Counted from the stretch's first letter, positions 25,203 to 34,875 are shown. The stretch is DNA of 64,000 nucleotides from Candidatus Latescibacterota bacterium (GCA_965248265.1 CBDFJF010000001.1:1728001-1792000), one strand, 5' to 3'. Numbers and translations: made by a program. Notes: generated by a model from the letters alone, not told the origin.

Positions 25203-26201
25203 TCACATCTGCTGAATTTCCCGCCACAGCTCCTCGTCGACGTGTATGCCATTCGCCAGGTTGTCGCATCGCGTCGCCAGCATGCCCTGACCGGGATAGC
25301 GAACCTCGGCTCCCTCGAGCGCCGGAACATCACAGTAGTCGCTGAGGATCTGCTCAACTGTTTCTTCAAGAATCTGTGCGCCTGCCAGTGATTCGGCATC
25401 GATCGCGATGAAGACTTGAGACACGTTCATTTCACTCTCACGTTGTCGAATCACAGCCGTCGAATCGCCTCCGCTGATGATGGTGGCCAGCAAATCCAGA
25501 ACCAGTGCCAACCCGGATCCTTTCCAATAGCCGATGGGTAGCGCCCGCCTGGAATCGACGATAGCACCGGGATCCGTCGTCAGCTCGCCATCCTCATCAT
25601 AGCCGCCCGCCAGCGTCAGCTTCTCCCCTCGCCGCCGCATCACCTCCAGCTTGCCATTGGAATATTGGCTCATCGCCATGTCCAGGAGCACGTGGCCGTT
25701 CTTGTGGGGCACACAGAGTGTCAGCGGATTGTTACCTATGCGTTTGAGAGCCGATCCCCAGGGGGGCATCAGCGCCGTGGTGTTGGTCCAGCAAAGAGCG
25801 ATGCAACCCGCCTCACACGCCTGCAGCCCGTAAGATCCGGCTCGCATCCAGTGGTTCGTGTTCTTGAGACCGACACAGCCCATGCCATGATCGCGGGCGA
25901 TCTCTACCGCTCGCGCCATCGCAAACTGCGCATTGAGCAGCCCTACTCCACTCTTGCCATCGAACTGTTCGATAGTTCCAAGGCGTGCAACGAGTTCGGG
26001 GGTTGCTTCGATATCAACGGTGCCGTCCTGGCACGAACGCACGAACCCCGGAAATCGGTTGAGACCGTGAGAGACGACGCCATCGCAGGTGTTTTCTGCG
26101 AACAGCCGGGCGCAGCGATCACCGCGATCCTGCGAGAACCCCAGATTAAGGAGAATCCGTCTGAATTCAGTGTGTAGCGTGTCGAAGGAGATCCGTTCCA
26201 T
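25203..26201 (-). CDS. yiaK: 3-dehydro-L-gulonate 2-dehydrogenase (2,3-diketo-L-gulonate reductase)
   Basis: SHGLNRFP, NTNHWMRAGSYG, WTNT, IGNNPL, DMAMSQYS, GYWKGSGL. Confidence 0.9.
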   Translation of the reverse strand: MERISFDTLHTEFRRILLNLGFSQDRGDRCARLFAENTCDGVVSHGLNRFPGFVRSCQDGTVDIEATPELVARLGTIEQFDGKSGVGLLNAQFAMARAVEIARDHGMGCVGLKNTNHWMRAGSYGLQACEAGCIALCWTNTTALMPPWGSALKRIGNNPLTLCVPHKNGHVLLDMAMSQYSNGKLEVMRRRGEKLTLAGGYDEDGELTTDPGAIVDSRRALPIGYWKGSGLALVLDLLATIISGGDSTAVIRQRESEMNVSQVFIAIDAESLAGAQILEETVEQILSDYCDVPALEGAEVRYPGQGMLATRCDNLANGIHVDEELWREIQQM

Positions 26202-26212
26202 GGGCGCCTAAG

Positions 26213-27118
26213 CTAATCAGATTGCCTGGCCTGCCCCAGGAGCGTGTCGAGGGGACTCTCGATGCGTACGAGTTCCTTGCGCGTGACATGTGTGTAGACC
26301 TCGGTGGTCTTTGAACTCTTGTGTCCAAGAAGCTCTTGGATGTAGCGCAGATCGGTACCGCCCTCCAATAGATGGGTCGCGAAGCTGTGGCGCAGCGTGT
26401 GCACGGTTGCTCGTTTCTTGATTCCCACGGCGATAACAGCCCTGGCAAACACCTTCTGCACGGACCGCTCTGTCAGGTGGCGGCCCCGACGCGCTCCGGG
26501 GAAAAGCCATGTCGATGGCTGGTATGCTTTCCAGTACAGCCGCAGGCCCTCCAAAATAGACCTGGGCAGTATGGTGTACCGATCCTTGCGACCCTTGCCT
26601 TGCTTTACCCGGATGAGCATCCGCTCGCTGTCTATGTCACTCACCTTCAGACGAACTACCTCACCCACACGAAGCCCGCCGGCATACAACAAGGCGATGA
26701 TTACCCGGTGTTTCGGATTTCGCTGCGAGTCCAACAGTCGCAGCACTTCTCGCTGACTGAGTATCTCGGGCAGCTGGCGCCCACTCCGAGGCCTGCGCAG
26801 ACCTTCCAATGGGGCTGGCTGTTTCAGCACTTCCCCGTAGAGAAAGCTCAGAGCACTGTAGGCGATGTTGAAGGCTGAGCGGCTGACCTTACGATCGACG
26901 ATGAGCCACTCGAGATGTGATCTCACCTCGGACTGGCGGTCGCCCCAAAACCCGCGCTTCCATTGCAGGAAACGCCGGCAGTATCCCATGTATGACTTCT
27001 GTGTCTTCTTGGCGTAGCCCCTCAATCGCAGCTCTGACTCGAGGCGGTTGAGGATGGTCAGTTCTTCTTTGAAAAGATCCGGGTGTCTCCGATAGCGCCG
27101 CATGTTCGTGTTTCTCAA
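26213..27118 (-). CDS. Tyrosine recombinase, integron-integrase-like but lacking the IntI-specific insertion
   Basis: N-terminal LRLRGYAKKTQKSY domain; catalytic R (GLR), K (GKGRKDR), HTLRH, LGH, Y (TTEVY) intact; start may be ATG 27103. Confidence 0.92.
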   Translation of the reverse strand: MRNTNMRRYRRHPDLFKEELTILNRLESELRLRGYAKKTQKSYMGYCRRFLQWKRGFWGDRQSEVRSHLEWLIVDRKVSRSAFNIAYSALSFLYGEVLKQPAPLEGLRRPRSGRQLPEILSQREVLRLLDSQRNPKHRVIIALLYAGGLRVGEVVRLKVSDIDSERMLIRVKQGKGRKDRYTILPRSILEGLRLYWKAYQPSTWLFPGARRGRHLTERSVQKVFARAVIAVGIKKRATVHTLRHSFATHLLEGGTDLRYIQELLGHKSSKTTEVYTHVTRKELVRIESPLDTLLGQARQSD

Positions 27119-27293
27119 GCAAAGGTGTATCCCTTGCTTGAGAGAAATCGATGCCAGTCGGACTGCACGGCGAACGCTTCTGCTATCTCATACTCGCACA
27201 GGTGGATAACGTTGAAGCCCGCGTGTAAAACCTATTGCGACTGTTTACCCGAATACGCACCTTCGTGTCAGATAAGTAACACATAGCGTCGAT

Positions 27294-27329
27294 TATGCGA
27301 ACCTTTTGTTCGCATACAAGCAGTTAGAG
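27294..27329 (+). other. attI-like primary recombination site, crossover G27323|TTAGAGG
   Basis: GTTAGAGGC (27323-27331) is the exact reverse complement of GCCTCTAAC (28021-28029); preceded by the inverted repeat TATGCGAAC-ctttt-GTTCGCATA. Confidence 0.78.
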
Positions 27330-27352
27330 GCCATGCGGCCAAAGCGAAGACC

Positions 27353-27381
27353 TTGCACTCTATACGCCATTGGCGTATAGT
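27353..27381 (+). promoter_or_regulatory. Sigma70-type promoter and operator of TA cassette 1
   Basis: TTGCAC-17 bp-TATAGT overlapped by perfect palindrome CTATACGCCA-T-TGGCGTATAG (27360-27380); ATG begins 7 nt after the -10. Confidence 0.75.
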
Positions 27382-27387
27382 AGATCT

Positions 27388-27704
27388 ATGACCTTTGTTG
27401 AAACGCCCATCTTTTCAGAGGAAATTCTGACTCTACTACTCGACGATGGCTACCGAGCATTGCAACTGGCGATCCTGTTCCGACCCGATCAGGACAGATC
27501 ATCCCGCGCACAAGCGGCTTGCACAAATTGAGATGGAATTTGCCGCGTGGCGGCAAACGCGGCGGTTTGCGTGTCATTTACTACTGGGACAAACCCGACG
27601 ACACTGTTTACATGCTCTGGGTGTATCGCAAGAGTCGGCAGGAGGATCTAACGGCTCAGCAAGCCAGACTGCTCAGCAAACTTGTGAAGGAGTACCTGTC
27701 ATGA
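27388..27704 (+). pseudogene. RelE/HigB-family toxin, frameshifted (cassette 1)
   Basis: MTFVETPIFSEEI..YRALQLAILFRPDQ continues in another frame as IIPRTSGLHKLRW..GKRGGLRVIYYW; one base missing near 27492. Confidence 0.82.
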
Positions 27705-27991
27705 AAGATCGCGACTTTGACAAACTTGTAGATAGCGTCAAACAAGCCGGTGCGATCAAGCGCGGCAAACTCAAACCGGGCCGAACCATCCAGATGGACC
27801 CTGACGATGTCAGATTGATCCGCAAGAAACTGCAAAAGTCCCAATCTGAATTTGCCCTGATGATAGGGGTCAGTGTCTCTACTCTGCAAAACTGGGAGCA
27901 GGGACGCCGCAATCCCGAGGGCCCGGCTCGAGCCCTGCTCAAGATCGCTTCGGAGAATCCCGAAGCAGTGGCGCGATCCTTGAGTGCGTAG
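27701..27991 (+). CDS. HigA/NadS-like HTH-XRE antitoxin (cassette 1)
   Basis: SQSEFALMIGVSVSTLQNWEQGRRNPEGPA; ATGA overlap with toxin stop. Confidence 0.9.
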   Translation: MKDRDFDKLVDSVKQAGAIKRGKLKPGRTIQMDPDDVRLIRKKLQKSQSEFALMIGVSVSTLQNWEQGRRNPEGPARALLKIASENPEAVARSLSA

Positions 27992-28022
27992 CGAGCCCAC
28001 ACCCCGCCCCTGACCACACAGC

Positions 28023-28123
28023 CTCTAACAAACGGTTTACACTGCGCCGCCTTCAGCGGCTTGGCCTTCGGCAATCTGCCTTCGCTGTGCTCGACAGATT
28101 CGTAAACCGTAGAAACGTTATGT
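28023..28123 (+). repeat. attC-like site 1
   Basis: CTCTAAC...ACGGTTTAC/GTAAACCGT arms...GTTATGT; internal GGCCTTCGGCAA. Confidence 0.88.
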
Positions 28124-28158
28124 GCCATGAATGGAAAAGCCGTTCCCTGCCCACCCAC

Positions 28159-28188
28159 TTGACCAAGACGTACCACAATTGGTACATT
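28159..28188 (+). promoter_or_regulatory. Promoter and operator of TA cassette 2
   Basis: TTGACC-18 bp-TACATT with inverted repeat GTACCA-caat-TGGTAC (28170-28185); ATG at 28196, no RBS. Confidence 0.65.
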
Positions 28189-28195
28189 ACGACCT

Positions 28196-28546
28196 ATGAA
28201 TCGAGACAAGCCGTTGGCCGTTCGCTTCTTTTGCACGTCGACAGGCCGAGAGCCTGTCAGAGAGTGGCTGCGCAGCTTGAACCGCGAATCAAAGAAGGTC
28301 ATTGGTGCGGACATCAAGACGGTTCAGTTTGGATGGCCGCTCGGGATGCCGCTGGTGCGCAAGCTCGAGAGCAATATTTGGGAGGTACGCAGCACGCTTC
28401 CAAGCTCAATAGCTCGCGTTCTCGTAACGATTGACCAAGAAACCGTTGTCTTGTTGCATGGTTTCATCAAGAAGAGTCAGAAGACTCCCGCGAGAGATCT
28501 GGCATTGGCACGCACCAGACTTAAGATGCTTCAGGAGGAATCATGA
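28196..28546 (+). CDS. RelE/ParE-superfamily toxin, Gp49/DUF891-like (cassette 2)
   Basis: GREPVREWL, GWPLGMPLVRKL..IWEVR, LLHGFIKKSQKTP. Confidence 0.9.
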   Translation: MNRDKPLAVRFFCTSTGREPVREWLRSLNRESKKVIGADIKTVQFGWPLGMPLVRKLESNIWEVRSTLPSSIARVLVTIDQETVVLLHGFIKKSQKTPARDLALARTRLKMLQEES

Positions 28547-28824
28547 ATAAGAAACACGTCGGCAGCAGCTTCGATGAATTCCTCGCAGAAGAAGACCTGC
28601 TCAGCGAGGCAGAAGCAACTGCGGTGAAGCGCGTTATCGCCTATCAGTTGACTCAGTTCATGGAGGATAACGAGCTGTCAAAAACCGCGATGGCAAGGCG
28701 AATGCAAACCAGTCGTTCTGCACTCGACCGGCTGCTTGACCCAGCCAATCCCTCCGTGACACTACAAACTATGGATCGAGCAGCTCGAGCCTTGGGCAAA
28801 AAGCTGCGTATCGAACTGACCTGA
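28543..28824 (+). CDS. HTH-XRE antitoxin (cassette 2)
   Basis: HVGSSFDEFL, SKTAMARRMQTSRSALDRLLDP; ATGA overlap. Confidence 0.9.
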   Translation: MNKKHVGSSFDEFLAEEDLLSEAEATAVKRVIAYQLTQFMEDNELSKTAMARRMQTSRSALDRLLDPANPSVTLQTMDRAARALGKKLRIELT

Positions 28825-28869
28825 CTGTAAGCGATTCAACTCGCAAGGCTGTGGAATCGACTTCACAGC

Positions 28870-28960
28870 ACATAACAGCACTGTTCGCGCGGCGCGCCAT
28901 ACGGCGCTTGGCCTTCGGCAACCCGCATGCGCGGGTTCGCAAACCGGCAAGACGTTAACT
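28870..28960 (+). repeat. attC-like site 2
   Basis: ACATAAC...GTTAACT; 51 nt (28907-28957) identical to site 3 (30829-30879). Confidence 0.9.
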
Positions 28961-28983
28961 GACATTCTAGTTTAGCAGAACTC

Positions 28984-29466
28984 ATGACATTTTATCTTGG
29001 CCTTTTCATTGTTGGCATTGCATTCGGTACATTGGCGCTCACCTTCATGTCCATTTCTCGGTTGGAGAGTGTGAAGTTCAATACGGGCGAGGTTCAGTGG
29101 AAAACAGTCTTGCTATGTTACGTGTGCAGCACCAGCTATATCACCGGGCGCCCGCTTCGCCCTCTTTATGGATATTCGCTCTTGCTAGTGGCCATCACCC
29201 TTTACCCGGCAGCGTTCGCCATTGGCCAAGGATTCGATGGTACGTTTGGATCCTCACATTTTCTCGTCTTGTCTCGCTTGGCGAACATTCTATGCCAATT
29301 GTGCGATTGGCCAGCGATGGGCTTTTGTCTTGAATACCTCGGATTTCGTTTCCGATCTGTCTTCTGCGTAGCTGGGTTTGCCGTCACAGGCTTCCTACTG
29401 CTATTCAATCCGATCGCCTTCTTTGGCTACTGGCCACCCTTCATGACCGAGTATGTGAGGATTTGA
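28984..29466 (+). CDS. Hypothetical membrane protein (cassette 3)
   Basis: 160-aa hydrophobic ORF starting just after the R' box of site 2. Confidence 0.65.
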   Translation: MTFYLGLFIVGIAFGTLALTFMSISRLESVKFNTGEVQWKTVLLCYVCSTSYITGRPLRPLYGYSLLLVAITLYPAAFAIGQGFDGTFGSSHFLVLSRLANILCQLCDWPAMGFCLEYLGFRFRSVFCVAGFAVTGFLLLFNPIAFFGYWPPFMTEYVRI

Positions 29467-29469
29467 CGA

Positions 29470-30783
29470 TGCAGCAACCGGGCTGATAGGTAACAGTCTA
29501 AACCGGGTTGATGGGTGACACTATTGTTTTGATTGAATTCACTCCCGTACGATCATGTCCCTCTCGTCGACGGTGGCTAGGAGGACGGTGTTGAAGTAGA
29601 TGGCCCAGACGCCGTCGTCGATCTCCTCGAGACCGATGTCGAGATGCTTGAGAGACTGAGCGATGAAGATGAGCTTGTGGCCGAGGCGTATGGTCCCGGC
29701 TCGGGTGACGTGCTTGATGACGAAGTGACCGGGGTACTCAATGGTCGGCATGCGGCCGGGATAGGGCCGGGGTGATGGGTGGTACCGGGAGCCAGGAGTC
29801 TTGCCGTTGAGGGCGTCATGGGGACGCTCGTCGTTGTAGAGCTGTCGGAAGCGCTGGAAGGATCGCTGCTGGGCGGCCTTGTTGGCGGCGGGTGGCCGAC
29901 AGGTAGCGGCCTTCAAGGTGCGATGCATGCGTTCGTGGGCGCCATTTTCCTGCGGCGATGCCGGGCGGATCCGCTGGTGCACGATGCCGAGCCTCATCCA
30001 CCAAACGTTGAGTCGGCATAGCCCATGCAATCCTCTGGAAGCAAAGGGAACGCCGTTGTCGGTGCGAATGGCCTGAGGCAGGCCGAATTCGCGGAAGGCT
30101 CTCTCGAAGACCGGACGCGCATGCAAGGTCTTGATGTCGGGCAGGGCGCGGCAGGTCAGGAGATAGCGAGTGTGCTGATCGCTGATGGTGAGAGGGAAAC
30201 ACCAAACTCCGTTCTTGGTAGGAAATTGGCCTTTGAAGTCGGCCGTCCACAGATCGTTGGGGTTGTCGGTGGTCGGCGGCACGGCTCCGGGGTGCTGACG
30301 TGGGCGTCGTCGTCGTCGCTTCTTCACCAGGCCTTCGCGCACCAGCAGATCGCCTGCCGTACTGACCGCCGGCCAGGAGCAGATGTGCGGATGTCGAGGC
30401 GCCAGCCAGTCCAACAGTTTGTTCGGTCCCCAATCGGGGTGCCGTGTGCGCGCTCCGAGAATGAGCTCGGCAATCTCTGGCGCCATGCGATGCGGACAGG
30501 TGTGGGGCGCGTGACTGCGGTCCTGTAACCCGGGCACCCCCTCTTCGGCGTGCCGCTGAAGCCACTTGTATCCGGTTTTGCGGCTGATCCCGTATCGCTC
30601 GCACAGCTCCGCTCTCGAGTAGTGCCCGCGCTGATCGTCGGCGATAAATCGCTTACGTTGTTCCATGGGTGCTGTCTCCATCCAGGGCATCGACCAACCT
30701 CCCAATTGGGGTTGGTCAAAAAGTAGAAGGAGTGTCACCCATCAACCCGGTCAGATGTGTTACCAATCTACCCGGTTTGTACC
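29470..30783 (-). mobile_element. IS481-family insertion sequence
   Basis: About 50-bp imperfect terminal inverted repeats, each with two AACCGGG..GAT.GGT.ACA units; ends approximate, no target duplication seen. Confidence 0.85.
29539..30690 (-). CDS. IS481-family DDE transposase
   Basis: MPWMET start, HTH GISRKTGYKW, WTADFKG, RTDNG, PQENGAHERMHRTLK, YNDERPH. Confidence 0.93.
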   Translation of the reverse strand: MPWMETAPMEQRKRFIADDQRGHYSRAELCERYGISRKTGYKWLQRHAEEGVPGLQDRSHAPHTCPHRMAPEIAELILGARTRHPDWGPNKLLDWLAPRHPHICSWPAVSTAGDLLVREGLVKKRRRRRPRQHPGAVPPTTDNPNDLWTADFKGQFPTKNGVWCFPLTISDQHTRYLLTCRALPDIKTLHARPVFERAFREFGLPQAIRTDNGVPFASRGLHGLCRLNVWWMRLGIVHQRIRPASPQENGAHERMHRTLKAATCRPPAANKAAQQRSFQRFRQLYNDERPHDALNGKTPGSRYHPSPRPYPGRMPTIEYPGHFVIKHVTRAGTIRLGHKLIFIAQSLKHLDIGLEEIDDGVWAIYFNTVLLATVDERDMIVRE

Positions 30784-30792
30784 GTGCACGTC

Positions 30793-30882
30793 ACTTAACA
30801 CACGGTTTGCGCTGCGGCGCATTCGCGCCTTGGCCTTCGGCAACCCGCATGCGCGGGTTCGCAAACCGGCAAGACGTTAGAT
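30793..30882 (+). repeat. attC-like site 3
   Basis: ACTTAAC...CGGTTTGCG/CGCAAACCG perfect arms...GTTAGAT. Confidence 0.9.
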
Positions 30883-30949
30883 GAAATGGGAACGGATGGA
30901 TTAAGGCCTCGGTCCCATATCTCCAAAAAGTGGTATACGGATACATAGG

Positions 30950-31453
30950 GTGAGAATCGTGACTACGTATTTCGCGGATTATAGGTGGTCTAAGCGCGAG
31001 CCAAAGGGGATATCGCCGATTGATGATCCCGCGGGCAAGGAGCATTTCCGCCTTTTTGAAGTCAATGGTGGCATGCGGCTAGAGCAGTTTGATGAGGCCG
31101 GCAAGTTCCGACGTCTTGTCTACTGTCCGCACGACGCGAAAATGGCGCGCGGTACGACATTTGAAGTCTCAGATGACCATACGCATAACATTCGTCGTTC
31201 TGAGGATGGTGCTGTGCGATCCTACGAAGTATACGTGTGGCCCGATGGCGACTATTCTGAGGATGTGCATCCGGAAGTCAGGATCTTCAATGAACACGGC
31301 AGGCTTGTGTGGCAACATCGACCACAGCGTGTGTCGGAATCTGCCTGGGATATTCACGTATTCGACGCGCTGGGCAAACCACGCGTGGTCTTGCACCACA
31401 CCGATTGCGACGGTCCTGAACCTGACACGATCGTTGAGGAATGGCTTGAATAG
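30950..31453 (+). CDS. Hypothetical protein (cassette 4)
   Basis: 167-aa ORF between sites 3 and 4; no motif recognised. Confidence 0.6.
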   Translation: MRIVTTYFADYRWSKREPKGISPIDDPAGKEHFRLFEVNGGMRLEQFDEAGKFRRLVYCPHDAKMARGTTFEVSDDHTHNIRRSEDGAVRSYEVYVWPDGDYSEDVHPEVRIFNEHGRLVWQHRPQRVSESAWDIHVFDALGKPRVVLHHTDCDGPEPDTIVEEWLE

Positions 31454-31547
31454 AGGAACGAACCGGCTGCATCAGGTAACACACTAGACGTCTGGGCCCA
31501 CGTGGCTTCTATTGTTGAGGTGCAGGCAGATGAGTGTCCCACATCAC

Positions 31548-31636
31548 ATATCACAGCAATTCACGCTACGCGCCGTTCGGCGCTAGACTTTGGGCAAGCC
31601 GCATTCGCGGCTTCGTGAATTGTGAAGACGTTAGAC
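31548..31636 (+). repeat. attC-like site 4 (degenerate R'')
   Basis: ATATCAC...CAATTCACG/CGTGAATTG arms...GAAGAC-GTTAGAC; same internal hairpin layout. Confidence 0.8.
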
Positions 31637-31652
31637 GAAACTGAGTCATAGT

Positions 31653-32420
31653 ATGGTACACGCCTGTGAGTTCGAATCCTTCCATTTGGATCAACTGCAG
31701 TATCTCATAAACAGCCATTTGGGATCACTGATCCCTGGATGGGCACTTCCGTCTGAGTACATCGCTTCCTGTCTAGAACGCAATCCAAGCGAATTCGTCA
31801 CTGATCCGTGGGTTTGCGAGCGCAAGACCTTCATCGCGATGAAGAATGACCGCGTGTGTGCTGCCGCCCATATTCTGAGATATCGAAAAGACTCGCCGGC
31901 AGAAGGCAGGGGTGAAATCGATTGGTTTGTGTGTTGGCCAAAGGAAGCAGAAGCAGGCGACGTCGTCTTATCAACTTCGGTGCAACAGCTTGATTCCTGG
32001 CAGACCCGCGCACCTTTGGCAGGGTGCAATCTCCCTGTGCGGGTTTTTTTTTTCGGGCGTACCAGAATCTTGGCAACGCATAATCGAGCTTCTCAAGCGG
32101 GCGGGCTTTACGCCAGGGCACGATGAGGCTGAGGCTATATACGGAGGGGGGCTGGCCTCGGTGGAACCATTGGCGGCGGCATGGCAGGCTTGTACGGTGT
32201 TGGGGTGGTGAAGAAGGCACGACGGCAAGGCATTGGAACTGCCGTAACAGCCGGTGCATGCTCATTTGCCCACGAATTGGGTTATCGTGCAGCGACATTG
32301 TTTGCTTCGGGTCAAGGCAAGTACTTGTATCCACATCTCGGCTTCGAGTTTATAGGCACATTCAGCCATTGGTCATATTCCAAGACGCGACAAAGAAAAC
32401 ATCAGGGGCTGAAGGCATGA
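31653..32420 (+). pseudogene. Disrupted GNAT acetyltransferase(s) (cassette 5)
   Basis: Frameshift at T10 run 32044-32053 and second break at G-run near 32146-32151; C-terminal piece has V..ARRQGIG..LY..LGF GNAT motif. Confidence 0.7.
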
Positions 32421-32424
32421 GGAC

Positions 32425-32458
32425 GCCTAACAAAGCGGATAGTTACTATCCGTTCACA
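32425..32458 (+). repeat. Truncated attC-like remnant
   Basis: CGCCTAAC just after the stop (1 mismatch to the complement of GTTAGACG), then short hairpin CGGATAGT-T-ACTATCCG. Confidence 0.5.
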
Positions 32459-32481
32459 AGCCTGAAAGGGGCCCTCCAAAA

Positions 32482-32946
32482 ATGGCGAAACGAAAAATCA
32501 GGGTTATTCATCCTACCGACCCCATAAATATCACCTTCGGAGCAGGCGATGAATATCGGTATCTTGCCACCGGAGACCACACGGACGGTGAATATTTCCT
32601 TGTTGAAGCCACTGTACCACCTGGTGGTGGCCCTCCCCCCCATATTCAAACCCGAGAGGAAGAAGCGTTCTATATTTTAGAAGGCGAGCTTACGTTTTAC
32701 AGCGAAGAGGGAGAGATTGTCGCCGGACCCGGAACCTATTTAAACATCCCCAAAGGGGCCACGCATCGTTTTCGCAACAACGGGAATCAGACGGCCAAGA
32801 TGCTCTTTTTCTTTGCGCCCGCCGGTATTGAAAAGCTCTTTGACGAGTTCAGTAAAATGGATGCCCCCGAAGACGACTTGAAAGCTGCAATCAAAGCCAT
32901 GAACACCTTGGGCCAAGAGTATGGTGTCGAGTACTTGGGAGAATAA
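32482..32946 (+). CDS. Cupin domain protein (quercetinase-like)
   Basis: GGGPPPHIQTREEEAFYILEG, PKGATHRF. Confidence 0.85.
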   Translation: MAKRKIRVIHPTDPINITFGAGDEYRYLATGDHTDGEYFLVEATVPPGGGPPPHIQTREEEAFYILEGELTFYSEEGEIVAGPGTYLNIPKGATHRFRNNGNQTAKMLFFFAPAGIEKLFDEFSKMDAPEDDLKAAIKAMNTLGQEYGVEYLGE

Positions 32947-33024
32947 GCTAGACAGGCGTGCCATCTTGGAACAACCGCTCGATAACCGAGTCGCATTATG
33001 ACTCTCCATCGAACGGAGACGCTC

Positions 33025-33639
33025 ATGAAGCTCACGAGTCTCTTCACGTCTCCTCAGATCGACATTCTCGCTGACCTTCACGAACGGGATAGCCGAGAAC
33101 GGCAGGAAGGGATACGAGAGGAGTCCAGTCTCAAGGCCCTTGCGCCGGCGGTCGCGCAGTTGCTTTACCTTCTCATTGTCCGAAAAAGCGCAAAGACGAT
33201 CGTCGAATTTGGCACCTCACACGGCTACTCAACGATTCACCTGGCCGCGGGGGCCGACAGGACGGATGGTCGCGTCTACACGGTGGACATGATTCCCGAG
33301 AAGACAACATCGGCTAGGGACAACCTCGCAGCGGCTGACCTCCTGCATCGGGTTACACTGGCGACTTGTGATGGAGCCGCCTTCGCTACGTCGCTGCCCG
33401 AGAGCATCGACTTCGTCCTGGTCGACTACGGCATCCCAGCGTTTGCGCCTGCCTGGGACGCGCTGCGCGGCAAGACTGAACCAGGGTGTCTAATTTTTTT
33501 CGATGGCGGCCCAAAGGGTTACTGGGAATCGGGGGCAGCAATGGGCTTCAAGGCGCTTCTTGAAGACGACCCCGCGTTCATTGTCTCGATCCTGCCGATG
33601 GAGAAGGACCAGTTGATCGGCGTAAGAATCGCGGAGTGA
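33025..33639 (+). CDS. Class I SAM-dependent O-methyltransferase
   Basis: IVEFGTSHGYSTIHLA, IDFVLVD; GGAG RBS. Confidence 0.85.
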   Translation: MKLTSLFTSPQIDILADLHERDSRERQEGIREESSLKALAPAVAQLLYLLIVRKSAKTIVEFGTSHGYSTIHLAAGADRTDGRVYTVDMIPEKTTSARDNLAAADLLHRVTLATCDGAAFATSLPESIDFVLVDYGIPAFAPAWDALRGKTEPGCLIFFDGGPKGYWESGAAMGFKALLEDDPAFIVSILPMEKDQLIGVRIAE

Positions 33640-33704
33640 TCAACCTTCAGTCTCCGTGAGGCTACCGCGACTGGGATGCGAATCAGATTAAGTGCGACCG
33701 ATGT

Positions 33705-33772
33705 ATACAGCAGCACTTGCGGATCAGGCCTGCGGGCCTTCGGCAAGTTCGCGAATGGGCGGAACGTTATAT
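33705..33772 (+). repeat. Degenerate attC-like site 5
   Basis: Retains GGCCTTCGGCAA and TTCGCGAA...GAAC-GTTATAT; left half eroded. Confidence 0.65.
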
Positions 33773-33823
33773 GACATATAAGATCCAAATGCATATAGAC
33801 ATCAGCAGGTCTATGTAAGGACG

Positions 33824-34875
33824 ATGGGGTTCCTGATGAGATCGGCGATATATGGTTTTCTTCTGGTGTGCGGCTGGACCGTTGGCAGCGAAGCGGAGGA
33901 GCGTAAACTCGGCGTGACGGTGGATCCCCGCATAGAATTGCTGTCGGTAGTTGGTGTTTTGGCGGGGCACCAGGGGCTTACCAACTATGACATCAGATAC
34001 AAGCAAGAGATTCTGAACCACTTTTCAGGGCATAGGGATCACCATGCCGTCAGGTTTCTGCGGGGCGTTATGGCCAGAGCCCTTGCTTCTGATGCTTACG
34101 CGATGGTGATGATTCATTTGTCTCAACCGCCAGCATTAGTCTTCGAGAGCCCAATCATCGATGACGAAATGGAAGACTATATTACGCGAGCGTTTGGTGG
34201 CGACATCAACATCATTGCATTCGTGGAAGGGCTCCGAGGCTTCGCCAACGACGCCAATTTCAATGAGTTTTTCGCCTCTAACGAGGACTTCTACCAATCT
34301 CTGCTCTCGGAAACTCTCGCCAAGCTTGGCAACACGGATTACATGGCTGCGCTCGAAGAGTCCTTGGACCAGTACTGCATCATGGCGGATTTGGGCCAAG
34401 TATCGTGCGTGATACAGGGATGATCGACCTTTTCAGTATTATCGGCCCTGTCGCAGAGAATGACGGTATTCCCGATTTCGGAGACGTTGCCAGACTTCAA
34501 GATGTCTTATGGCATGAGTTCGCCCATTCGTTTGTCGATCCCATAACCGCAGAGCATCTTGAAAGCGTCGAGAAATACTCAACCTTGTATGTCCCTATTG
34601 CAGATGAAATGATGAACGCCGGGGGGTATATGAACTGGCAAACCTGCGTTAACGAGCACATAATCAGGGCCATTACATGTCGATTGTTTCACGCTGAGAT
34701 TGGGCCAGCTGCCGGCGAGAAGGCGCTGGAAGCCGAAAGAGAGAAGGGCTTCAAGTACATCGACTCGATTTACTCTAGTCTGCTTATCTACGAAGCCAAT
34801 CGGTCCACGTACTCCTCCTTCGAGAGTTACTACCCCCAAATTGTTGCATCTTTCGGAGAGATTGCTGGAGAATGA
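33824..34875 (+). pseudogene. DUF4932-like secreted metallopeptidase (HExxH), frameshifted
   Basis: Signal peptide and VDPRIELLSVV; second frame LGPVLHHGGFGPSI...WHEFAHSF...NEHIIRA; break near 34360. Confidence 0.72.

Follow-up and report, generated by a model that had tools for sequence, protein, structure and literature searches.

A distinct integron-like platform in Candidatus Latescibacterota: an integrase without the I2 helix and probable cassette sites of non-canonical design

We analysed a 64,000-nucleotide stretch of DNA, hereafter the window, from a Candidatus Latescibacterota bacterium (GCA_965248265.1 CBDFJF010000001.1:1728001-1792000). It is part of a 7.3 Mb genome of two contigs (genome G000, contigs C1 and C2), and its closest relatives by integrase sequence are Candidatus Latescibacterota genomes. 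Positions 26213-33773 hold a whole integron-like platform, in which a minus-strand recombinase gene and an adjoining attI-like stretch precede five plus-strand cassettes in a single orientation, each cassette consisting of one or more open reading frames (ORFs) followed by a structured site at its end. Four of these structured sites are recombination sites, and they are probably the cassette recombination sites, that is, attC equivalents, of a chromosomal integron-like platform. Our best reading is that the platform belongs to a distinct integron lineage, sister to canonical IntI, whose integrase does not carry the I2 helix. The recombinase, the attI-like site and the four sites are listed below, with scores from a covariance model (R1) described further on.

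26213..27103, minus strand: tyrosine recombinase of IntI-like type, lacking the I2/additional domain; 296 aa counted from the ATG (the ORF as listed reaches a TTG at 27118)
27268..27326, plus strand: attI-like site, consisting of TCAGATAAGTAACAC, an 11 nt gap, a hairpin TATGCGAAC/GTTCGCATA (27294-27316), the spacer CAAGCA and the crossover box GTTA (27323-27326)
28022..28124, plus strand: attC-type site 1, TAAC 28026-28029, GTTA 28117-28120; R1 75.2 bits, E 8e-18
28869..28961, plus strand: attC-type site 2, GTTA 28954-28957, stem 7/9 paired; R1 93 bits, E 5e-23
30792..30883, plus strand: attC-type site 3, GTTA 30876-30879, perfect stem of 9 bp; R1 102.4 bits, E 9e-26
31545..31637, plus strand: attC-type site 4, R'' eroded to TATCAC, GTTA 31630-31633; R1 77.7 bits, E 1.5e-18

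The initial annotation of this DNA had described four plus-strand sites with paired arms and three hairpins, and direct reading of the sequence bore out their positions as well as every arm and hairpin quoted. The stem arms are ACGGTTTAC/GTAAACCGT in site 1, CGGTTTGCG/CGCAAACCG in site 3 and CAATTCACG/CGTGAATTG in site 4, while in site 2 CTGTTCGCG faces CGCAAACCG with 7 of 9 positions paired. Hairpin 2 is GCC-TTC-GGC, eroded in site 4, and hairpin 3 occurs as AACCCGC/GCGGGTT, AAGCCGC/GCGGCTT and AATCTG/CAGATT. The same design recurs in a wider family, of which 102 complete sites were counted. From the 5' end, C-N3-TAAC-A is followed by a spacer of 3-4 nt and a stem of 8-9 bp; a four-way junction bearing three hairpins comes next, and after the return arm a second spacer of 6-7 nt, with AAC at its end, leads to GTTA-N3-G. 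TAAC and GTTA are near-invariant, and the two boxes agree with the RYYYAAC/GTTRRRY core of attC with its crossover at GTT. An A directly follows TAAC in 100 sites. The 5' spacer measures 3-4 nt in 99 sites and the 3' spacer 6-7 nt in 98, the latter exceeding the former by 3 or 4 nt in 94 and ending in AAC in 76. The linker from stem to hairpin 1 is 4-5 nt long (CTGC on the top strand in 47/102), 71 sites have TTG as the linker joining hairpins 1 and 2, and no base separates hairpin 2 from hairpin 3 or hairpin 3 from the return arm; this junction and its linkers are common to Latescibacterota and Paenibacillus sites. The earlier description of the arms as unbulged holds for sites 1, 3 and 4 and for most relatives (96 of 102), but it is not universal, since six sites have an extra base, on the L'' side in five and on the L' side in one; none of the three well-paired sites of the window has an extra L'' base. 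The stem is free of mismatches in 46 sites and has one to three in 56. An aberrant copy occurs at C1:779768-779844 of the same genome (locus L122 2765-2846), where the 7 nt spacer is missing and the L' arm CGCAAACC joins GTTAGAGG of cassette 1 directly.

DNA folding of both strands, compared with 200 shuffles, supported part of the fold that had been predicted. The minimum-energy fold of site 3 is a stem with a three-hairpin junction on both strands (z -3.3 and -3.5; 0/200 shuffles as good), and site 1 gives the same fold more weakly (z -2.4 and -2.0). Site 4 folds with two hairpins (z -3.5 and -4.05), and site 2 does no better than its shuffles.

The claim that the three-hairpin structure covaries stood up in two alignments, in both of which pairing and double changes lay beyond 500 shuffles. 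RNAalifold on a plain MAFFT alignment recovered hairpin 1 alone because MAFFT misaligned the variable hairpins, and the structure was therefore set by hand for R1, which was built from 22 sites of the window genome and two relatives. In this 22-site alignment 87.3% of cells are paired, against 28-38% with partners slid, and both sides change at 17 of 32 pairs, values that 0 of 500 shuffles reached; hairpin 2 is conserved here and does not covary. R1 scores the four window sites at 75-102 bits (E 8e-18 to 9e-26) and, over the window together with 80 homologous-integrase loci, returned 91 matches at E up to 1. In the alignment of 103 matches, 89.5% of cells are paired (30-38% slid) and double changes occur at 26/32 pairs, hairpin 2 included, again with 0/500 shuffles as high; the L stem changes on both sides in eight of its nine pairs. 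The sites are thus imperfect palindromes kept by structure rather than by sequence, as attC sites are, and covariation in four of the five helices supports the earlier proposal that they fold as single strands.

The ends of the cassettes fall in the right-hand GTTA. Cassette 1 (27323-28120) has a second copy at C1:779833-781951, behind another site, with similarity starting at GTTAGAGG and ending at GTTA; this copy carries a 1.3 kb insertion (C1:780013-781325) at the position of window 27494-27497, the same place as the frameshift of the toxin gene in the window. The same cassette, with the same ends, was found in a relative, on a 3318-nt contig from a sequencing run of an independent study (X1), with 6 differences and 2 gaps in 798 nt; there it lies behind a different site and not in first position, and the integrase piece on that contig differs at 58/315 positions. 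At the other end of the platform, the attI block is conserved in the window and two relatives (L041 and L042) up to GTTA, where three unrelated first cassettes diverge, and its 9 bp hairpin shows a compensatory change in L041. The 12 Paenibacillus loci compared have a conserved block behind the stop codon of the integrase gene; it closes with GAT|GTTA, and from there the loci diverge. The intervals between sites hold about one same-strand ORF each. In two strains of P. xylanilyticus the integrase (95.8%) and the far flank (97%) are shared, but the intervening array of ~4.9 kb is not. Contigs of runs X2-X4, from one sample that is probably the window's own, contain several inter-site joints that are indistinguishable from other loci of the repeat family.

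The recombinase itself agrees with the suggestion of the initial annotation that the integrase is without the I2 helix. It has a tyrosine recombinase fold with the catalytic R, K, HxxR, H and Y, and was assigned to PF13495 and PF00589. It scores 239.6 bits against TIGR02249, under the cut-off of 265, with profile positions 1-177 and 233-315 matched and 178-232 unmatched, and 207.3 bits against NF040815, below the cut-off of 220. Its best solved relative is VchIntIA/IntI4 (2a3v; E 2.6e-47), aligned in two blocks that skip residues 175-235, and these residues face only 19 residues of the window protein; a XerA-like structure follows at E 5.8e-35. Aligned with IntI1, the protein lacks inserts of 31 and 10 aa but keeps the R, K, HxxR, H and Y regions and the C-terminal SPLD, so that the IntI-specific additional domain around patch III is missing. 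Both inserts are also absent from 19/19 other family members aligned, which keep the catalytic regions. Because all 20 aligned members, from several phyla, lack the domain and keep these regions, its absence is a family trait rather than decay. No protein of the window genome matches above the TIGR02249 cut-off, that is, as a canonical IntI. In a quick maximum-likelihood tree of 34 rows, from which the truncated row L067 was left out, nine canonical IntI form one clade (Shimodaira-Hasegawa-like approximate likelihood ratio test, SH-aLRT, 98) and the 19 I2-less proteins are its sister group (87), the two together standing apart from six other recombinases of the window genome (98). Both the structure match and the tree thus place the protein closer to IntI than to Xer. 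With an outgroup that itself has no I2, one gain of I2 on the canonical branch is the shorter story, although a single loss may be the alternative.

Many I2-less members have an extra N-terminal portion of ~70-100 aa with a conserved R-x-W ... K-x-W-x-I/V-P; it occurs in the integrase ORFs of L049, L061, L079, L085, L087, L090, L044, L050, L064, L065 and L110, and the window protein and its two closest relatives are without it. Two archaeal contigs, L065 (Candidatus Undinarchaeales) and L076 (Nitrosotalea), encode proteins 48-55% identical to the window integrase, and an R1 search beside these two genes returned no site of the family.

For comparison with canonical attC, we read ten sites, three of them from this phylum; the sources were the class 1 integrons of five plasmids and, within the phylum, a canonical integron in genome G060 with an IntI above the TIGR02249 cut-off. 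In all ten, one spacer is 5 nt and the other 5-6 nt long, and L'' carries a single additional base behind its third position, in agreement with the attC description of Nivina et al. (2016, PMC5027507), which gives an unpaired central spacer of five to six bases per arm and extrahelical bases. A canonical rule (5 nt; 5-6 nt; 3 bp, one extra L'' base, 3 bp) fits 10/10 sites beside canonical IntI and 0/102 family sites, and a family rule fits 84/102 family sites and 0/10 canonical ones. The family thus has neither the five-to-six-base spacer on each arm nor the extrahelical L'' base (5/102 versus 10/10), and the earlier claim that these sites are without canonical bulges or spacers is upheld.

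Five class 1 intergenic stretches (L154 4778-4861, 4040-4143, 1560-1604 and 758-796; L155 1205-1332), in which a pattern search gave no credible site, were left out of this comparison. R1 run without filters did not find the class 1 attC sites, its best match being that of aadA25 at 10.6 bits (E 1.7). Of three canonical IntI loci of the phylum, only L149 gave canonical sites, and a direct-repeat search around the other two genes (L148 and L150) detected no array. A small covariance model of canonical attC was dropped, the MAFFT alignment of six canonical sites being inconsistent with their structure.

The type of integrase goes with the type of site. Run without filters on the surroundings of three I2-less integrases of the phylum (47 kb), R1 found 26 sites, and 48 kb surrounding three of the phylum's canonical IntI genes yielded none at E up to 1. 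In 151 phylum genomes, taking E up to 1e-45 for the I2-less integrase and a score above the TIGR02249 cut-off for canonical IntI, R1 sites occur in 62, the I2-less integrase in 24 and both in 15; canonical IntI occurs in 15, of which 2 have R1 sites. Among the matches listed, integrase and array lie no more than 7 kb apart in at least eight phylum genomes, and 14 of 15 Paenibacillus loci with an I2-less integrase have arrays. One further locus (L152, G147 C1:2044001-2063000) carries ~20 sites in 17 kb beside an integrase gene with one TAA stop.

The window genome holds about 25-30 further copies of the site outside the window, in several clusters without an integrase and nearly all in one orientation. 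Over both contigs, 23 of 24 sites (E below 0.001) are on the plus strand, and GC skew is negative around 22 of these 23. Should the leading strand be the G-rich one, the bottom strands of these sites would be on the lagging-strand template, a placement opposite to that of 25 out of 30 sedentary chromosomal integrons in the account of Loot et al. (2017, PMC5371416).

Of the 102 sites, 72 fold better on the bottom strand, with a mean difference of -1.1 kcal/mol (Wilcoxon 5.6e-6), a preference in the same sense as that of attC. For mobile attC sites a larger strand difference, 2.12 kcal/mol over 263 sites, is given in PMC5027507. In the L stem, A.C pairs on the top strand (G.T on the bottom) number 27, against 14 of the reverse. 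Because the crossover lies in the right-hand box, and given the stability bias and the A.C/G.T bias, the bottom strand would be the substrate. By the general geometry of tyrosine recombinases, the R-box cut on a folded strand lies on the 5' arm. Once folded, the bottom strand would present two duplexes, the paired R boxes (C-N3-TAAC / GTTA-N3-G) and the L stem of 8-9 bp. Between them would lie an asymmetric internal loop, 6-7 nt along the cleaved 5' arm against 3-4 nt along its counterpart, and the four-way junction with its fixed linkers would form the cap. The integrase would then cleave at the AAC/GTT of R' and exchange one strand with attI or with another site, and replication would resolve the single-strand-exchange product, as in integrons.

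In canonical integrons, extrahelical bases select the strand and, acting through the integrase, restrain the tyrosine at the L box, which limits exchange to a single strand (Escudero et al. 2016, PMC4792948). In the family, the two strands differ in a conserved way only in spacer asymmetry and in the one-sided linkers, and these features are therefore proposed to take over both jobs. The asymmetry of 3-4 nt and the one-sided junction linker (CTGC, top strand) would replace the extrahelical bases and the I2 helix both in discriminating the strands and in restraining the L-box monomer, which, given the 3-4 nt of the uncut arm, would lack a proper central region for its cut. Either the asymmetric loop or the junction, as first suggested for these sites, may thus be the strand-selection cue. 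The wider proposal, which we put forward tentatively, as a serious possibility rather than as the expected outcome, is that of an old second integron lineage whose integrases never had I2 and yet move cassettes via folded single-stranded sites, with asymmetry and junction in place of the lock.

Several observations weigh against our reading. The fold of site 2 does not rise above its shuffles (z -0.33 and -1.16; 72 and 24 of 200 as good). The 103-match alignment was fitted to R1, so its pair counts lean toward the structure. The strand bias is small, with the top strand stabler in 29/102 sites, and the Wilcoxon test overstates it because the sites are related; sequence does not separate single- from double-strand recombination. 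The geometry rules were written after viewing six canonical sites and the family (the other four canonical sites were added later and fitted), and five of the 102 family sites do have the extra L'' base. The tree is a quick one with support of 87 for the I2-less group and long outgroup branches. The link between integrase and sites is loose at the level of genomes, 47 having sites only and nine, mostly fragmented assemblies, the integrase only. Sites at E up to 0.001 occur in only 19/80 homologous-integrase loci; most of the wider integrase family, including that of Bacteroidota and many Clostridia, uses other sites or does something else. In addition, genome G085 has 22 sites and a canonical IntI, and no I2-less integrase was found in it, so a canonical IntI may act on these sites.

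Three other explanations were weighed. One is that the sites are ordinary attC of an ordinary chromosomal integron, with hairpins as a lineage-specific terminal structure, spacers within normal variation and a decayed IntI. Integrons do share the R'' and R' boxes, the A that follows AAC, the C that precedes GTT, the arrangement of cassettes and their toxin-antitoxin genes, branched terminal structures are known in chromosomal integrons (PMC5027507), and CALINs (attC clusters with no integron integrase) are reported in Firmicutes (PMC4889954, PMC9024848), so that the standard model may already catch such sites. However, all 20 aligned I2-less members are without the domain, keep their catalytic regions and form a group of their own, which speaks against decay. 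Spacers of 3-4 and 6-7 nt (99 and 98 of 102 sites) also stand against 5 and 5-6 nt in 10/10 canonical sites, as does the L'' bulge, found in every canonical site and in 5/102 family sites; and a junction with linkers conserved from Latescibacterota to Paenibacillus is not a "variable" end. We therefore consider this explanation improbable.

It is also unlikely that the enzyme acts in a Xer-like manner on a duplex formed by the conserved 3' half (L' arm, 7 bp spacer and GTTA box), while the hairpins have some other role, for instance in transcription termination or in the mRNA stability of the cassette genes. In favour of this, the enzyme is without I2, the element that PMC7790495 connects with the change from double- to single-strand recombination; many sites vary less in their 3' half (CGCAAACCG GCAAGAC GTTA) than in their 5' half, and attI looks like the former; and the sites lie just downstream of ORFs, where terminators would sit. 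Yet on reading the sequence the L' arm and the R' box are not inverted copies, so the usual two-arm core is missing, and the sites occur in many copies in arrays rather than as the one two-armed duplex core per replicon of Xer/dif. The L stem covaries at 8 of 9 pairs, which a duplex half-site would not need. Were the structure selected as coding-strand RNA, G.U should outnumber A.C on the top strand, whereas the four inner helices have 46 against 63, and no T run follows the hairpins. A self-spreading family of repetitive extragenic palindromic (REP) sequences or miniature inverted-repeat transposable elements (MITEs), near the recombinase by chance, would fit the copies outside the window, with their integrase-less clusters, but it is barely credible. 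There is one copy per gene or gene pair, on the genes' strand; the arrays start at a conserved site beside the integrase in at least eight phylum genomes and 14 Paenibacillus loci; and the mobile unit is cassette plus site, ending at GTTA. Gene-independent spread in both orientations, without a recombinase-linked array, is thus not what we see. The initial annotation had named dispersed REP-like elements as what would overturn it; the copies instead mark the borders of cassettes within arrays, and one cassette recurs whose two ends coincide exactly with GTTA.

With the sites read as those of a distinct, I2-less integron lineage, the likenesses to canonical integrons are many. The recombinase is closest to IntI, attI adjoins its gene, and promoterless-looking cassettes, with toxin-antitoxin pairs among them, form one-orientation arrays. 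The sites have inverse xxxTAAC ... GTTAxxx core boxes with the crossover in the right-hand GTT and are covarying imperfect palindromes with a stabler bottom strand, and clusters without an integrase lie elsewhere in the genome. On the other hand, the window integrase is without the additional domain and falls short of the TIGR02249 cut-off. The family's sites have spacers of 3-4 and 6-7 nt where canonical arms have 5-6 nt, there is no conserved extrahelical L'' base, and the end that is variable in attC is a conserved three-hairpin four-way junction with fixed linkers. The arrays of Paenibacillus and of some Latescibacterota lie downstream of the integrase gene on the same strand.

The integrases of the reverse integrons of Treponema are said to be canonical IntI with the additional domain. 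XerC/XerD act on attP of CTX phage as a folded single strand with a double-stranded partner, exchanging one strand only. That case involves a single phage site, the chromosomal dif and two recombinases, unlike the cassette arrays described here. Recombination of folded single strands by XerC/XerD, which have no I2, is mentioned in PMC5027507 and is a precedent for the mechanism proposed here. The Paenibacillus-type loci resemble the reverse integrons of Treponema in that integrase and cassettes run in the same direction (10.1101/2020.05.09.085589). As with CALINs, the window genome has several integrase-less site clusters, and 47 of the 62 site-bearing phylum genomes are without this integrase family; unlike a CALIN, the window cluster has an integrase, which a finder requiring the IntI-specific domain would not count.

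The additional domain is given as the mark of the integron integrase and as necessary for integron function (Ghaly preprint; PMC8138268), and PMC7790495 treats acquisition of I2 as the step from double- to single-strand recombination. Smyshlyaev (2021) mentions that the IntI insertion is not fully conserved in an "integron-like" subgroup. For Firmicutes, the only elements that Cury (2016) and Neron (2022) report are CALINs and one complete integron. A search of open full-text literature found no description of platforms with an I2-less integrase or of this site design, although existing lists of CALINs may include the arrays. If the wider proposal is correct, single-strand cassette recombination would predate I2 or be independent of it, and Paenibacillus (Firmicutes) and Latescibacterota, counted as nearly integron-free, would carry complete integrons that present finders class as CALINs or overlook. 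A natural platform with a sister-group I2-less integrase and redesigned sites would offer the evolution of I2 a living test case and reveal that strand choice has a second structural solution. Surveys with IntI-specific profiles would then undercount integrons, notably in cultivable Paenibacillus, where the question is open to bench testing.

The cassettes of the window contain two toxin-antitoxin pairs, hypothetical genes and one methyltransferase, and the last of them ends in a fifth, degenerate site. Their parts are as follows.

27323..28120, plus strand: cassette 1, with a frameshifted RelE-like toxin gene (27388-27704) and a helix-turn-helix (HTH), MqsA-NadS-like antitoxin gene (27701-27991)
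28196..28824, plus strand: genes of cassette 2, a Gp49/HigB-like toxin (28196-28546; Pfam Gp49 77.1 bits) and an HTH antitoxin (28543-28824; HTH_37/HTH_26)
28984..29466, plus strand: ORF of cassette 3, 160 aa, no family match
29470..30787, minus strand: IS481-family insertion sequence within cassette 3, downstream of the ORF, with a transposase gene (29539-30738; NF033577 243.3 bits)
30950..31453, plus strand: ORF of cassette 4, 167 aa, no family match
31653..33639, plus strand: last, long cassette, several ORFs including a class I methyltransferase (32998-33639; Pfam Methyltransf_24 44.9 bits)
33702..33773, plus strand: degenerate terminal (fifth) site, 3' half kept (GGCCTTCGGC...GCGGAAC GTTA), 5' half eroded; R1 17.8 bits, E 0.42

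Cassette 1 matches Pfam RelE (24.4 bits), HTH_3 (39.9 bits) and NF041265 NadS; the frameshift of its RelE-like gene lies near 27490-27530, and the antitoxin gene is intact. In the last cassette, a G+C-rich inverted repeat followed by ~10 T occupies 32003-32049, within the overlap of the ORFs 31653-32126 and 32123-32527, and may be a terminator or a frameshift-prone tract. A scan of 26000-34000 against Rfam, which contains no attC family, returned nothing relevant, only three chance matches (E 0.4-6.8); the sole match at this repeat was SorX, at chance level.

The IS481-family element of cassette 3 ends 12 nt ahead of the TAAC (AAC core) of the R'' box of site 3. It has eight full copies in the genome, the others being at C1:1010163, C1:965647, C1:2293651, C2:3899640, C2:1875352, C2:2777850 and C2:428143, and in all eight the right end lies 10-16 nt upstream of a C-N3-TAAC (R'' box), at 12 nt in five. 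Four of the eight stand immediately ahead of a full site of the I2-less-type family, and no target duplication is evident. Much like the IS1111-attC elements, which target attC, this element looks like an insertion sequence that targets these sites.

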